From assembly GCA_021513715.1 (NCBI GenBank), contig CP084167.1, positions 2,272,001 to 2,336,000 on the forward strand: a stretch of DNA of 64,000 bases, in the 5' to 3' direction. Both the position numbers and the translations under genes were made by a program. Origin of the DNA: Candidatus Heimdallarchaeum endolithica (GTDB lineage Archaea; Asgardarchaeota; Heimdallarchaeia; Heimdallarchaeales; Heimdallarchaeaceae). The first letter of the stretch is position 1. Every line of letters starts with the position of its first letter. Of the stretch, positions 17,923-26,615 are shown piece by piece. The notes beneath the pieces are model-generated. The model saw only the letters and a program-made list of their open reading frames with translations. It did not search any database and was not told where the DNA came from.

Positions 17923-19500
17923 TCACACACTCTCATAACCTCCTCCGCCAGGAGTTTCAATTATTACTATATCTCCTTTCTTAATTTTTCTAGTGGTCTT
18001 TGATGGAAGAATTGACTGTTTATCTGATGAAACAAGAATATTTTTGCCTTTTCTACCTGGCATTCCTCCAAATAAACCAAAAGGAGAATGATTTCTTCTC
18101 TCACTTTGAATAGAAAGAGTAGCTTCTTCAGCAAGCAATTTTATTGAACGTCTAATACCATTGCTGCCAGACCATTTCCCCTTTCCTCCAGTGGACTCCA
18201 AAATAGAATATTCAAGAACTTGGAGGGGATAATAAGTTTCCAAAACTTCGATAGGTGTATTGCGAGTATTAGTCATGTGGCTATGTTTTGCACTTGGGGG
18301 AGAATAATCCTTTCCTGCTCCAATACCTCCAGCAATAGTCTCATAGTAAGTAAATTGATGACCTTTATGTGTTCCTCCAATAATAATGTTATTCATTGTT
18401 CCACTACTTGCTGCAGGAATATCATCTGGAAAAATCTGGGAAAAAACACCTAACAAAACATCAACAATTCGTTGACTAGTCTCAACATTTCCTGCAGCTA
18501 CTCCTGCAGGAGGAAGAGGATCCACTAATGTTCCTTTTTTAGTGATTACCTTAAGAGGTTCATATAATCCATAATTTGTTGCGTAATCTCTAGGGACTAA
18601 AGCTCGAATAAGATAATAAGTAGCTGAAAGGGTTACAGCCAGTGGTGCGTTGATGTTACCTTCCACTTGTTTAGAACTTTTAGAATAATCAACAATAAGC
18701 TCCTCTCCACATCTTTTAACTTCGGCAGTAATAGGGATTGGTTCATCTGTAACTCCATCATTATCCATATAATCTGTGAAAGAGTAGGTATTTCCTTCAG
18801 GTATGCTTTGAATTAAGTGAAGAGAGGCAGAACGAGAACGGTTAATTAGAAATTCAATAACCTTTTGAACTCTAGGTAAGGAGTACTTGGCTAATAAAGA
18901 TTGAAATTTTTTTTCTCCAATCTTGGTTGAGGCAAGCTGTGCTTGAAGATCTCCTTTACGTTCGTAAGGAACCCTCACATTTTCAAGAAAAACATCTAAC
19001 CATTCTTCATTCAATTTTCCCTTTCTTTCGATAAGTGTTGGTTTAATAATAAAACCTTCTTCGTGGAGAAGATACTTTCCTCCAGGCATACTACCAGGTA
19101 CAACTCCTCCAACATCTGCGTGATGGCAACGATTAGCAATATATCCTACAAGTTTTTGTTCAAAAAAGATAGGTTTGACGATTGTTATATCCGGTAGGTG
19201 CGTACCTCCAGAATAAGGGTCATTGGAAATATATATGTCACCATCTTCTATATTATTTTCACCAAAATGTTTGATAATTGCTTTAACAGACTCGGGCATA
19301 GCTCCAAGATGAACAGGAATATGTTCTGCCTGAGCAAGAAGTCGACCTTGACTATCCATAATCGCACTGGAAAAATCTAATCTATCTCGAATGTTGGGGC
19401 TAAAAGCAGAACGTTGAAGAACTATGCCCGTCTCTATAGCAACGTTACGAAGAGCTTGGTTAATAACCTGAACTTCAATTAAATTAAATTGATCACTCAT
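17923..19500 (-). CDS. Hydantoinase B / 5-oxoprolinase subunit
   Basis: SPNIRDRLDFS, HIPVHLG, NDPYSGGTHLPD, HHADVGG, ETPGGGGY. Confidence 0.93.
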   Translation of the reverse strand: MSDQFNLIEVQVINQALRNVAIETGIVLQRSAFSPNIRDRLDFSSAIMDSQGRLLAQAEHIPVHLGAMPESVKAIIKHFGENNIEDGDIYISNDPYSGGTHLPDITIVKPIFFEQKLVGYIANRCHHADVGGVVPGSMPGGKYLLHEEGFIIKPTLIERKGKLNEEWLDVFLENVRVPYERKGDLQAQLASTKIGEKKFQSLLAKYSLPRVQKVIEFLINRSRSASLHLIQSIPEGNTYSFTDYMDNDGVTDEPIPITAEVKRCGEELIVDYSKSSKQVEGNINAPLAVTLSATYYLIRALVPRDYATNYGLYEPLKVITKKGTLVDPLPPAGVAAGNVETSQRIVDVLLGVFSQIFPDDIPAASSGTMNNIIIGGTHKGHQFTYYETIAGGIGAGKDYSPPSAKHSHMTNTRNTPIEVLETYYPLQVLEYSILESTGGKGKWSGSNGIRRSIKLLAEEATLSIQSERRNHSPFGLFGGMPGRKGKNILVSSDKQSILPSKTTRKIKKGDIVIIETPGGGGYESV

Positions 19501-21569
19501 TTAATTTCCTCCAAAATAATGTAACCTAATCTGTTGATTCTACCAAACACACCTGGGGGAATAACAGTAGTAGAATCAAGCTGATCAATAATTGCAGGAC
19601 CCTCAATAATATTGCAGTCTAACAATTTAGCTTTATCAAAAACAGGAGTAGAAAAAAGTTCACCATTGAAGTTGACCTCACGACTGGATTTATAAGCTGA
19701 ATCAAGGGGACGAGAAGAACCTTCAGGAAGTTTAGAAAGTTTGAGCTTGGGTACTGTTCCTCTGGCTTCAACCTTAACATTAACAACTTCTACTTGTAAA
19801 TGCTTGTCATGCCAAGAGTAGTTTTGATGATGAAGAGAATGGAAACTGTCAACAGCTTCTGACAAAATAGAACTAGAAATAGGATAACTGATTGGAATAG
19901 AAAGAGTGTCAGACTGACCTAAATAACGAAGGTCCAGAGAATATGAAAAAACTTTTTCTTCTTCTTTAACATTTTCAGAAGACAAAATAGATGATAACTC
20001 TAATTTTAAAGTTTCGAGAGTATTGTTAAGATCAAGAAATTTAATGTCTTCGACAAGCTGAAGGTAAGATTGAACCTTCTCGTGTTTAATATCACTAGAT
20101 AGTAATCCATAAGCCGACCATGCGCCCGGAAAAGGAGGAACAATAACACGTTTAATATCTAATTCTCTGGCTATATCCCAAACTTGCATAGGACCTGCAC
20201 CTCCAAAACCAAGGAGAGAAAAATCGCGGGGATCTAAACCGCGATGGACAGTAACAACACGAATAGCTTGCGAAATGTTGTGATTAAGAATCTGACGAAC
20301 AGATAGAGCTAAAGAAGTAACAGAATCGATTTCATAATCATAGGAGGAATTTCTTATTTCATCAAGTAATGATTGTAAAACAGAAAAGGATTTGTTGACG
20401 TCAATATCCAAATTACCAGCAAAATTGCTAGGGTGAACATAACCTAAAACCATATTGGCGTCAGTTAAAGTAACTTTGTCTCCACCAAAAGAATAACAAG
20501 CAGGACCAGGAAAAGCTCCTTGAGACTCAGGACCAACAGTTAACAATCCATCATTAAACTTAGCAATAGAACCTCCACCACTACCAATAGTCTCAACATC
20601 AGCCATAGGTGAAACAATCGGAAAACCGCCAAAATAGCGTGAGTTTAAAATGATAGGACTATCGATCAAGGCAGAAACATCAGTACTAGTACCGCCAATA
20701 TCTAAAGAAACAAGATGGGAAAGAGAAAGATGGTCAAGAGTCTTAGAAGCAGCAAGAACACCACCAGCAAGACCAGAATAAAGAGTTTGGATACCATTAC
20801 GGGCGATAGTAGAAACGTCGCTCATACCAGTGTTAGACTGCATGATTAAAAGAGGAGAAGAAATACCGATATCAAGAAGCTTGGAACGAAGAGAGGAAAG
20901 GTAACGAGAAATAACAGGGCTGACTTTAGCATTGATGATAGTAGTAACAGAGCGTTCGTATTCACCAATAGAAGGACAGATTTCAAAAGAGGGAAAGGAA
21001 AGAAAACCATGAGAACTAAGAAGAGAATGAAGATACTGTTCATGAGAAAAATTGCGGAAAGAAAAAAGAAGAGAAATAGCTAAAACAGAAATAGAACGAG
21101 AATGAAGAAGAGAAGAAAGAGAGTCTAAATCAAAGGTAAGAGGACGAATTACAGAACCCGAAGAATCAAGGCGCTCATCAATCTCAATTAATAAATCAAA
21201 AGAAAAATCTAAAGGATAAGATTGAGAAAATTTGAGATTATAAAGATCAGAACGTTGTTGGCGGCCAATCTCAATAATGTCTTTGAAACCTTTAGTAGTC
21301 AAAAAAGCTATAGGAGGACATTTACCCTCTAAAAAAGCATTAGTACCAATAGTTGTTCCATGAATAAGCAATTCAATGTCAGAAGGACCAAAATCAAAAA
21401 GATGCATAACCTCCTGTAAACCAGAAATGATTCCAATACTAGGGTCATGAGGAGTAGTAGCAGTTTTCCAAGCTCTAATTTGACCATCACTAGAAAGTAT
21501 AATAAAATCAGTAAAAGTACCACCTGTATCGATACCAATACGAATAGGAGGATGAAGAGAAGAAAGCAT
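19497..21569 (-). CDS. Hydantoinase A / 5-oxoprolinase ATP-binding subunit
   Basis: GIDTGGTFTD, HGTT, DIGGTSTD, IGSGGGS, GPESQGAFPGPACY, FGGAGP; 4-bp overlap with the B subunit. Confidence 0.93.
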   Translation of the reverse strand: MLSSLHPPIRIGIDTGGTFTDFIILSSDGQIRAWKTATTPHDPSIGIISGLQEVMHLFDFGPSDIELLIHGTTIGTNAFLEGKCPPIAFLTTKGFKDIIEIGRQQRSDLYNLKFSQSYPLDFSFDLLIEIDERLDSSGSVIRPLTFDLDSLSSLLHSRSISVLAISLLFSFRNFSHEQYLHSLLSSHGFLSFPSFEICPSIGEYERSVTTIINAKVSPVISRYLSSLRSKLLDIGISSPLLIMQSNTGMSDVSTIARNGIQTLYSGLAGGVLAASKTLDHLSLSHLVSLDIGGTSTDVSALIDSPIILNSRYFGGFPIVSPMADVETIGSGGGSIAKFNDGLLTVGPESQGAFPGPACYSFGGDKVTLTDANMVLGYVHPSNFAGNLDIDVNKSFSVLQSLLDEIRNSSYDYEIDSVTSLALSVRQILNHNISQAIRVVTVHRGLDPRDFSLLGFGGAGPMQVWDIARELDIKRVIVPPFPGAWSAYGLLSSDIKHEKVQSYLQLVEDIKFLDLNNTLETLKLELSSILSSENVKEEEKVFSYSLDLRYLGQSDTLSIPISYPISSSILSEAVDSFHSLHHQNYSWHDKHLQVEVVNVKVEARGTVPKLKLSKLPEGSSRPLDSAYKSSREVNFNGELFSTPVFDKAKLLDCNIIEGPAIIDQLDSTTVIPPGVFGRINRLGYIILEEIK

Positions 21570-21725
21570 GTTAAAAGAAAAAAGAAGAAGAGAACTTAAA
21601 GATTTTCAAAAAATAAGAAAAACCTAAAGAAAAAGAAAAAATTTTTTTATAAATAAGTTTATTAGTTAAAATGCATTTACTAAAAAGAAAGATTAATTGT
21701 TAAAAATACTTTTTATTTGTATAAA

Positions 21726-25905: not shown

Positions 25906-26295
25906 ATGAAACACCGTTTACTTGATCTACTTGCTTGTCCTGTTGAAAAAGGTTGGCCACTTAAATTGGAAATTCAAAATGAGGAAACTGAAGAGGAAGA
26001 ACTTGATATTCCTGTTGTTTGTGATGAAACTCAAGTTGTTTGTAAATATTACTGTAATTTCAAGAATTTTTTCCTTATTGTTGATTCAGGTTCTGAAGAG
26101 CGCTTTAAACCTGTCGATGAAATTAAGAAACATGTGACTGTTGAAGATTGTAAAAGTTGTTTTCAAATAGATATTACACAAGGTTTGCTACATTGTCCAG
26201 TTGATGAAGAACACGTCTATAAAATCAAAGATGGTATTCCCATTATGCTTACTAAAGAGCAAATTGATGAAATATATGGTGGAAAAATCGAGTAG
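25906..26295 (+). CDS. trm112: Trm112-like methyltransferase activator
   Basis: MKHRLLDLLACP ... ITQGLLHCP...YKIKDGIPIML. Confidence 0.8.
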   Translation: MKHRLLDLLACPVEKGWPLKLEIQNEETEEEELDIPVVCDETQVVCKYYCNFKNFFLIVDSGSEERFKPVDEIKKHVTVEDCKSCFQIDITQGLLHCPVDEEHVYKIKDGIPIMLTKEQIDEIYGGKIE

Positions 26296-26306
26296 GGCAG
26301 ATTTTA

Positions 26307-26615
26307 ATGAGTGATTCTAGTTCATATACTAATAAACTTGACGAAGGAAAAAAGAGGTCATTCTCTCGTGTGGAATTTTTAGAACTATTCATGCTCTTTT
26401 TAGTAGTGTTACTGTTTATATTCTTTTTAATTGTTCAAAGTCGTGTTGCATTTTTTGATAAAATAAAGTCTCAAATAATATTAATTGACATTCTACTGGC
26501 TATAGCCATTATTATTCTCTTCAGTAAATTTGTTCTTGATTTTTATAATATTAAGTTGTCCGAAGTTTTGAAAAAAACTCTTACTAATTTAAAAACCAAA
26601 AAAGAAAATCAATGA
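26307..26615 (+). CDS. Small two-TM membrane protein
   Basis: Two hydrophobic segments; lies in the same operon as the two upstream genes. Confidence 0.6.
   Translation: MSDSSSYTNKLDEGKKRSFSRVEFLELFMLFLVVLLFIFFLIVQSRVAFFDKIKSQIILIDILLAIAIIILFSKFVLDFYNIKLSEVLKKTLTNLKTKKENQ

Follow-up and report, generated by a model that had tools for sequence, protein, structure and literature searches.

What makes a plus strand turn abruptly from purine-rich to pyrimidine-rich at a tRNA-Trp gene? The flip lies in a 64,000-nt stretch of the 3.33-Mb genome of Candidatus Heimdallarchaeum endolithica (CP084167.1, positions 2,272,001–2,336,000; hereafter the window, in which all kb positions are counted unless stated otherwise). 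The hand counts on which an earlier note had based it are exact, with 53/60 purines at 21061–21120 and with 33/34 and 44/60 pyrimidines at 23941–23974 and 24481–24540, respectively. The switch point, placed there at 21.65 kb, has to be moved into the tRNA-Trp gene itself, an identical copy of which is carried by H. aukensis.

Skew was measured per kb at synonymous sites, as the residual of plus-strand pyrimidines after correction for coding strand and codon family. It persists after this correction, the first of two checks that the earlier note had named, and it passes both. In the left arm the residual per kb runs toward the tRNA as −0.19, −0.42, −0.65 and −0.79; in the right arm it runs away from it as +0.35, +0.13, +0.74, +0.68, +0.37 and +0.33, and ≈ +0.2 is still found at 29–30 kb. 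With a background SD of 0.146, the jump of 1.13 ranks sixth in the genome. The strand asymmetry is mirror-symmetric, with an amplitude of 0.66 and a decay of ~2.9 kb. Gene direction, as the note had argued, gives no explanation: hydantoinase A (hydA) and the GNAT acetyltransferase are both encoded on the minus strand, yet T/A at coding-strand fourfold sites is +0.80 in the former and −0.75 in the latter. The flip is a local, strand-specific property of the DNA, centred on the tRNA regardless of gene direction. The features of the two arms are collected in Table 1.

Table 1. Features around the tRNA-Trp flip (window coordinates; T/A and C/G denote skews).
Feature	Position	Strand	Observation
tRNA-Trp(CCA), 27-nt intron	21726..21828	-	Flip centre; ARAGORN with introns, Rfam RF00005
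Left arm	17923..21725	.	Plus strand A/G-rich, peak beside the tRNA; synonymous residual −0.19 to −0.79 per kb
Hydantoinase/oxoprolinase A (hydA)	19497..21569	-	Directed away from tRNA; fourfold T/A +0.80, C/G +0.70, Ser 13.5%
Hydantoinase B	17923..19500	-	Fading end of left arm; T/A +0.23
Right arm	21829..30700	.	Plus strand T/C-rich, declining across mutL and mutS; synonymous residual
Polymorphic insertion	21980..23950	.	Missing from H. aukensis
197-aa ORF	22042-22635		Inside polymorphic insertion
GNAT acetyltransferase	24156..24959	-	Directed toward tRNA; coding-strand T/A −0.75
Nucleotidyltransferase	25158..25883	+	Directed away from tRNA; T/A +0.74; recombination signal p=0.026
Trm112-like gene	25906..26295	+	T/A +0.61
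mutL	26698-28536	+	Right-arm tail; T/A +0.41
mutS	28551-31274	-	Right-arm tail; T/A −0.17
IS transposase (DDE_Tnp_1)	15448..16392	-	Internal purine-to-pyrimidine gradient, same polarity

The composition of hydA had been called abnormal, and comparison with homologs in other contexts (62–64% identity), the note's second check, bears this out. These contain 7–9% Ser and 11–15% Lys+Glu, with fourfold T/A between −0.16 and +0.14, against 8.6% Lys+Glu and the Ser content and T/A given in Table 1. An artefact of amino-acid usage or gene orientation was rejected as the source of the skew. None of hydA, the GNAT and the nucleotidyltransferase belongs to the multi-copy families of the genome, and no long repeat or ORB-type repeat family was found in 21400–25200. 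The coincidence with a decayed, rearranged patch turned out to be incidental: the patch is a polymorphic insertion. It holds a class-II glutamine amidotransferase gene that is whole in other strains and is interrupted here by a multi-copy non-coding element. Its skew lies below that predicted from its distance, and in haplotypes lacking it the GNAT gene is ~2 kb nearer to the tRNA; the insertion dilutes the skew and is not its cause.

A genome-wide scan returned ~20 tRNA/rRNA loci with a flip of the same polarity. The same polarity is seen at three CRISPR arrays and at points within secY, ileS, actin, thermosome and EF-2. A sharp A/G-to-T/C flip is present at about half of the tRNA genes and lacking at about half; skew strength correlates with the codon demand of the tRNA (rho 0.45–0.55). 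Within the arms the skew is equally strong for genes directed away from and toward the centre, and upstream and downstream of the tRNA. On the outward strand an excess of T over A is coupled with one of C over G, so that T/A and G/C skews are anticorrelated. Synonymous sites reach 80–90% pyrimidine, while fourfold-site GC near centres stays at 0.159–0.163 (0.158 for comparison); at twofold sites of the outward strand G lies above A (0.30 vs 0.20) and T slightly above C. Protein composition is shifted by the arms (Ser 9.3 vs 4.9%, Lys 12.3 vs 6.7%). Flanks moved off tRNA-Asn and tRNA-Phe by a 38–40 kb element keep their skew, and mobile elements adjoining tRNA or rRNA genes are skewed at their ends. 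Two apparent new anchors, at 2,207,500 (the strongest raw peak) and 2,437,500 of the chromosome, proved to be mobile-element junctions with displaced stable-RNA flanks.

Several candidate determinants were discarded. The secY switch coincides with a perfect match to an A-box/D-arm-like motif; the 422 matches to this motif genome-wide are close to background, and strong and weak tRNAs both have it. At the centres outside tRNA genes, Rfam gave no hidden RNA. No break, hotspot protein or shared motif was found, which speaks against the recombination reading given below. Divergent and convergent gene pairs generally show no jump. The bias is indifferent to neighbouring bases, with T-T contexts not its maximum, and the skew is therefore not a product of T-tract selection; nor are terminators or promoters in excess, as selection for T-tract terminators would have it. 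Also against the recombination reading, the coding strand of intragenic repeat arrays is T-rich all along, with no mirroring. For Argonaute guidance, a Piwi domain was not found in either Heimdallarchaeum genome.

Our preferred reading, held tentatively and at somewhat less than even confidence, is that the flip has built up as the footprint of homologous-recombination events that start at tRNA-Trp and extend outward for ~3 kb on both sides. Strand exchange would start at heavily transcribed, GC-rich, highly conserved spots such as tRNA and rRNA genes, CRISPR arrays and the conserved cores of some genes. Within the heteroduplex, the outward strand would be the one that comes in or is newly synthesised, and unequal mismatch repair would fix pyrimidines on it, a strand-asymmetric form of biased gene conversion. 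MutS recognises pyrimidine-pyrimidine mismatches weakly, and such weak action would favour T and C. EndoMS/NucS cleaves G/T, G/G and T/T, and hardly C/C, A/C or A/A (PMC4838380); it would favour T and G, provided that cutting resolves toward the donor. The H. endolithica genome has both MutS and NucS. In Ca. Freyarchaeum deiterrae, where NucS was found and MutS_I was not, the tRNA-centred skew is of keto type. The assignment of the bias to these enzymes was made post hoc. MutS plus NucS is not sufficient, as two genomes of the f5 family with both reach only 0.02–0.03, equal to a relative lacking NucS; MutS alone, NurA and Pol Y each occur in genomes without skew and were rejected as lineage determinants. 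Close relatives show a weak or undetected skew. The mutL and mutS genes are candidate players in the proposed mechanism, and their location in this arm may be coincidental.

Exchange between lineages was assessed by comparing twofold sites with H. aukensis. Divergence is <0.08 in 39–40% of genes lying up to 4 kb from a skewed centre, against 8–11% near unskewed tRNAs or elsewhere. Per centre, skew and divergence are related with rho −0.49 (p=0.005, n=31), or −0.41 (p=0.045) without the 2.05–2.14 Mb block; with control for origin distance the link stands at p=0.056, neighbouring genes being non-independent. Skewed tRNA loci appear to have undergone more DNA exchange between species (rho −0.49; p=0.056 with the origin-distance control). 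The iMet and Leu/Val loci have strong skew, yet no sign of such exchange. The hydA gene is a mosaic of recombination tracts across four lineages, with clustered incompatible sites (p=0.002), and its divergence tends upward with distance from the tRNA.

The insertion sequences bear on the same question. In all seven multi-copy IS families the composition shifts from purine-rich at one end to pyrimidine-rich at the other and the flanks are almost unaffected, as expected from recombination if tracts end where homology ends. Among homologs of the window's IS, those in hosts of this family carry the gradient and those in two other families lack it. Private mutations of resident copies (25 R>Y vs 42 Y>R) match site counts (p=0.90) and depart borderline from the 50:50 of mutational equilibrium (p=0.05). 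This host-family-specific gradient is not built by fresh mutations.

Near centres A>T substitutions are raised x1.33, T>A lowered to x0.40 and transitions changed to ~x0.78, a pattern such as a fixation bias or a redistribution between strands would give. The earlier suggestion of a local, strand-specific mutation source holds in that the process is local and strand-specific; simply adding a mutagen accounts poorly for the data, since synonymous divergence falls near centres, a test confounded by gene flow. In the folded polymorphism near tRNAs, purine-minor exceed pyrimidine-minor singletons by 20 to 11 (p=0.15) and shallow variants by 6 to 1 (p=0.125), and higher-frequency variants stand at 18 to 18; a first result at the tRNA-Trp locus (22 vs 8) was not sustained with more loci.

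The note had also proposed a chromosomal landmark such as an origin or terminus. Mirror symmetry and an orc1/cdc6 gene inside the window (7232–8503, 13 kb off and the nearest to tRNA-Trp) speak for it, but ~20 flips elsewhere are as strong or stronger, the skew decays within 3 kb and its spectrum is unlike that of this genome's origin or terminus. The global keto-skew minimum, a further cdc6 gene (2150112) and the middle of an inversion bounded by IS elements converge on genome position ~2.15 Mb, where the origin likely lies, ~143 kb from tRNA-Trp; that tRNA-Trp is a single origin or terminus is scarcely credible. Replichore skew also bears on the main rival, local outward DNA synthesis, R-loop-primed or recombination-dependent. 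Here short or abortive bidirectional synthesis would expose the outward strand to depurination and oxidation (A>T, G>T) and to deamination (A>G, C>T), and the bias would arise in mutation rather than in fixation. The twofold-site preferences agree with the prediction from single-strand deamination, complementary rates keep roughly the same sum, consistent with a fixed fork direction, skew strength goes with codon demand, and the keto-rich outward strand of Freyarchaeum is the usual leading-strand signature. The genome's own leading strand, however, is of keto type, ~tenfold weaker and richer in G than C (−0.079/+0.072 by replichore), whereas the tRNA arms are richer in C than G. Private mutations of resident IS copies lack strand bias, and outward synthesis alone leaves the extra between-species exchange unexplained. 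We regard it as unlikely, though a serious contender.

DNA-level selection would make the flip a polarity signal for a translocase, SMC, remodeller or terminating RNA polymerase, mimicked by the IS. A fixation bias S of ~1.2 reproduces the measured rates, neutral IS mutations would wear the pattern away, and the loci at the centres are important ones that are probably highly expressed. It is nonetheless improbable: the bias is context-independent, is equally strong whether the mRNA turns U-rich or has the opposite orientation, alters amino acids to the extent given above, stays on the flanks displaced from tRNA-Asn and tRNA-Phe, and is weak or undetected in close relatives. A yet more doubtful proposal is transcription-coupled asymmetry, in which read-through and divergent transcripts from strong stable-RNA promoters would leave the outward strand as the non-template, losing purines while the template is repaired. 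Across the genome, fourfold sites on coding strands do show this sign, with slightly more T than A and C than G; uvrB/uvrC-like genes (recognised by eye) are present, and skew strength tracks codon demand. Against it stand the equal upstream and downstream arms, the rpl3-rpl4-rpl23-rpl2 operon without such skew, the purine-rich non-template strand of secY, ileS and actin ahead of the switch and the divergent promoters without a jump; the IS gradient is left unexplained.

Extended to the Heimdallarchaeia, the recombination reading would have fixed hotspots at tRNA genes and other active, conserved loci channel gene flow between species, and biased conversion rewrite proteins; this is rather unlikely as a general statement. 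The letter preference would then be set by the host's repair enzymes, purine/pyrimidine with MutS and NucS and keto with NucS alone. If recombination hotspots they are, eukaryote-like exchange from active loci would exist in a prokaryote near the eukaryotic root, and the role of MutS and EndoMS could be tested. What the skew provides is a sequence-only map of the start sites of an unexplained strand-specific process in Asgard archaea, which are hard to study experimentally. Whatever the cause, gene position biases the amino acids of proteins encoded within ~3 kb of skewed tRNAs (Lys 6.7 vs 12.3%, Ser 9.3 vs 4.9%), and this can distort phylogenies, indices of codon usage and origin predictions from skew in this lineage.

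No description of tRNA-centred skew in archaea was found in the literature searched; the exchange-skew link, the hydA mosaic and the host-family-specific IS gradient are new here. Skew jumps at oriC and N-domains of bacteria, archaea and eukaryotes share the upward T/A jump regardless of gene direction but differ from the present case, which has many centres, a 3-kb decay, C above G outward, ~tenfold the replichore skew and no link to cdc6. GRINS, which are associated with gene conversion (2021, PMC8256042), are duplications in which GC and TA skews are correlated (keto). They resemble the arms in intense kilobase-scale skews, foremost at third codon positions, and in recoded proteins; unlike these duplications (>500 bp, >80% identity), the arms are single-copy and two-armed round a centre, and excess T goes with excess C (purine/pyrimidine). 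Heimdallarchaeum tRNA genes are integration sites of aloposons, HeimV2 and HeimM2 (Wu et al. 2022, PMC8813620). These elements belong to the same genome and loci, and those next to tRNA or rRNA genes are skewed at their ends; the skew, unmentioned there, spans conserved core genes on both sides. Eukaryotic meiosis offers a further likeness. Smagulova and colleagues reportedly saw in 2011 a purine-to-pyrimidine skew at mouse hotspot centres. At human meiotic DSB hotspots, mutation differs between the strands in a mirror-image pattern over +/−2 kb (Hinch et al. 2023, PMC7615360); the likeness is confined to mirror asymmetry round a fixed point, a reach of ~+/−2 kb and independence from genes. 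The present system differs in being prokaryotic and known from sequence only, with no PRDM9-like motif found, in its anchors (tRNA, rRNA, CRISPR and conserved gene cores), and in an asymmetry that reaches 80–90% pyrimidine at synonymous sites and changes protein composition.

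The tRNA-centred skew is real and surprising. The earlier note had described a switch of the plus strand from A/G-rich to T/C-rich at tRNA-Trp that gene direction does not explain. Its purine and pyrimidine counts were reproduced exactly, and the flip survived correction for strand and codon family, with a jump of 1.13 against a background SD of 0.146, the sixth largest in the genome (a single contig of 3,326,783 bases, 30.8% GC, of which the window covers 2,272,001-2,336,000). In all seven genes measured at the locus the T/C-rich strand is the one reading away from the tRNA, here called the outward strand. 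The abnormal composition ascribed to hydantoinase was also borne out, homologs in other contexts being of ordinary composition. The stretch at window 21980-23950 is absent from Ca. Heimdallarchaeum aukensis and strain contig L258; it is present in other strains, where the amidotransferase gene is intact. This insertion accounts for the dip in right-arm skew and the high skew of GNAT. A non-coding element splits the amidotransferase gene at window 23390-23570; close copies of this element occur at genome 798,700, 1,237,200 and 1,353,350.

Features of the tRNA-Trp locus (skew: fourfold-site T/A, coding strand) and A/G to T/C switches within genes
Feature	Coordinates	Strand	Observation
tRNA-Trp(CCA)	window 21726-21828	minus	with intron
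hydB			skew +0.23
hydA			skew +0.80
GNAT			skew -0.75
nucleotidyltransferase			skew +0.74
Trm112			skew +0.61
mutL			skew +0.41
mutS			skew -0.17
secY	genome 1,898,668		codon-sharp switch
ileS	genome 1,825,780-1,825,860		codon-sharp switch
actin	genome 1,725,897		codon-sharp switch
thermosome subunit	genome 1,699,321		codon-sharp switch
EF-2	genome about 2,600,120		codon-sharp switch

Pooled over 39 tRNAs, outward fourfold-site T/A skew in the first kb was 0.33-0.40 in genes reading away and 0.27-0.31 in genes reading toward the tRNA, equal on the upstream and downstream sides and close to background by 6 kb. An exponential fitted to 12 isolated centres (loci with such a flip) gave an amplitude of 0.66 and a decay length of 2.9 kb. 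Peaks of opposite polarity reached at most 0.32, as against 0.87 for normal polarity. Not every tRNA is a centre: about half are. tRNA skew strength tracks codon demand (rho 0.45, or 0.55 without tRNA-Phe, which is displaced, and two paired genes), with Trp (strong) and Asp (weak) as exceptions. Centres outside tRNAs include the 16S and 23S rRNA ends and three CRISPR arrays. The in-gene switches lie at or near conserved motifs and are better suited than tRNAs to pinpointing the exact start point. Flanks of tRNA-Asn and tRNA-Phe that mobile elements have shifted by 38-40 kb are still skewed, and the skew is thus a slowly changing record.

A truncated 5' copy of tRNA-Asn, which retains the native upstream flank, and the intact gene are 38 kb apart in opposite orientation (genome 2,352,158 and 2,390,393), and the element between them carries giant ORFs; tRNA-Phe is similarly 40 kb from its native flank. 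Introns in the T-arm region occur in tRNA-Lys(UUU) and three tRNA-Ala genes (genome 2,516,102, 2,073,006, 2,394,080 and 1,989,130), which ARAGORN misses and Rfam either misses or scores weakly. A near-identical GC-rich RNA-like pair lies beside tRNA-Ser and tRNA-His (genome 2,471,141 and 2,829,754) and resembles 5S rRNA by eye; Rfam made no call on the one copy scanned, and 5S rRNA was not predictable in the published genome (PMC8813620). Large repeat-rich proteins at genome 3,095,278-3,101,766 and 3,137,793-3,142,394 (TSP3 or beta-helix repeats) and 558,498-562,640 are nearly all T at synonymous sites over their repeats, on the coding strand in all three, a GRINS-like bias that the mirror model does not explain.

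Near centres, fourfold sites on the outward strand show a T/A of 3.4 and a C/G of 2.7 (background 1.03 and 1.20) with GC unchanged; at twofold sites G gains over A too. The shift is alike in 12 of 12 neighbour contexts and reaches the proteins: genes reading away have 6.7% Lys, 6.2% Glu and 9.3% Ser, as against 12.3%, 11.2% and 4.9% in genes reading toward. Relative to H. aukensis, and assuming equilibrium, rates near centres were A>T x1.33, T>A x0.40, C>A x0.23 and transitions about x0.78; gene flow depresses all of them, so that only their ratios are safe. By these rates, the main change is one toward fewer pyrimidine-to-purine changes on the outward strand rather than added mutation.

The earlier note had considered a replication origin at tRNA-Trp. 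A single origin there is hardly credible, since the chromosomal keto (G+T type) skew turns elsewhere, near 2.15 Mb, beside a cdc6 gene (genome 2,150,057-2,151,275) at which a 272-kb inversion between the two species also has its midpoint (2.152 Mb). The inversion ends in inverted copies of one IS (window 15448-16392, genome 2,287,451; and genome 2,015,561-2,016,484), and its midpoint independently supports oriC near 2.15 Mb. Once centres are masked, G exceeds C on the leading strand by ~0.075 and T exceeds A by 0.02-0.04; relative to the tRNA arms the C/G sign is reversed and the size about one tenth. A second orc1/cdc6 gene (window 7232-8503) scores above the NCBIfam cut-off; its surroundings show neither a skew jump nor obvious ORB repeats. 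A third is located at genome 1,201,560.

H. endolithica PR6 (3.32 Mb) has an ANI of 88% to H. aukensis (PMC8813620), and the window MutL shares 96% identity with its counterpart in H. aukensis PM71. Divergence between the species is broadly to bimodally distributed across analysis windows. At twofold sites, 39-40% of genes near skewed centres are almost undiverged, and 8-11% near unskewed tRNAs or elsewhere. Skew and divergence per centre correlate at -0.49 (-0.41 with the least-diverged block left out; -0.35, p=0.056, with origin distance controlled); the iMet and Leu/Val centres run counter to this trend. At the tRNA-Trp locus, hydA, GNAT, the nucleotidyltransferase, mutL and mutS diverge by 2-4%, a 102-aa ORF and deoC by 10%, and hydA is a tract mosaic (p=0.002). 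Near the origin, strains of both species differ by just 1-6% over most of genome 2,066,000-2,131,000, a sign of wide gene flow between the species; at 1,936,000-1,951,000 they differ by about 15%.

An internal gradient from purine to pyrimidine runs through each of the seven multi-copy IS families; ordinary genes lack one, and IS flanks are hardly affected. Homologs of the window IS in hosts of the Heimdallarchaeum family rise from 0.25-0.49 to 0.58-0.86 fourfold-site pyrimidine, for which common ancestry of the copies is a possible alternative explanation; in hosts of two other families (f2 and f3) the gradient is absent. Private mutations in resident copies match site counts, which speaks for a fixation bias rather than a mutational one. 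Near tRNAs the corresponding counts do not differ significantly (singletons 20 purine-minor and 11 pyrimidine-minor, p=0.15; higher-frequency variants 18 and 18).

Outward T/A skew up to 1.6 kb from tRNAs reaches 0.31 in H. endolithica and 0.35 in its relative H. aukensis. Three further genera of the same family score 0.16, 0.05 and 0.05, and a second Heimdallarchaeia family, represented by two genomes, scores 0.12-0.14; across nine more Asgard genomes, with 6-30 loci apiece, values run from -0.03 to 0.07. Ca. Freyarchaeum deiterrae has a keto-type tRNA-centred skew (0.22 in the first kb; 360 kb examined); NucS (EndoMS) was found and a search of the genome for MutS_I found none. Its 1.46-1.82 Mb region has numerous strong keto-type upward jumps, several without a detected tRNA (e.g. 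1,505,200, 1,565,000 and 1,640,350). MutS_I and NucS are mostly alternatives among the Asgard genomes searched, and occur together in Heimdallarchaeia of families f1 and f6 (in most genomes) and some f5. As the f5 genomes with both are unskewed, the pair fails as a sufficient condition for skew.

The bias is mirror-symmetric, acts at the DNA level, is anchored at specific loci, is associated with DNA exchange and is active enough to be retained in both Heimdallarchaeum species. Its best explanation, held tentatively, is outward exchange from centres with uneven mismatch repair. Exchange would begin at GC-rich loci that are active and conserved, the outward strand would be the incoming or new strand, and uneven repair would fix T and C on it. 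Blindness of MutS to pyrimidine pairs may yield the purine/pyrimidine variant. The described mismatch specificity of EndoMS (PMC4838380) may yield the keto variant. This fit of repair proteins to skew types was made after the data were seen. Outward DNA synthesis with single-strand damage is a less probable source; it overlaps with the exchange model in break-induced or recombination-dependent synthesis. Selection is improbable as the cause, and transcription slightly more so.

The literature searched, including PMC8813620, holds no description of tRNA-centred skew. By their defining tests, the skew falls outside oriC, transcription asymmetry and the duplicated skewed regions known as GRINS; with GRINS (PMC8256042) it has a link to gene conversion in common. 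Closest in working are human meiotic break hotspots with their strand-asymmetric footprint (PMC7615360), a class of which the tRNA-centred skew may, by analogy, be a candidate member.
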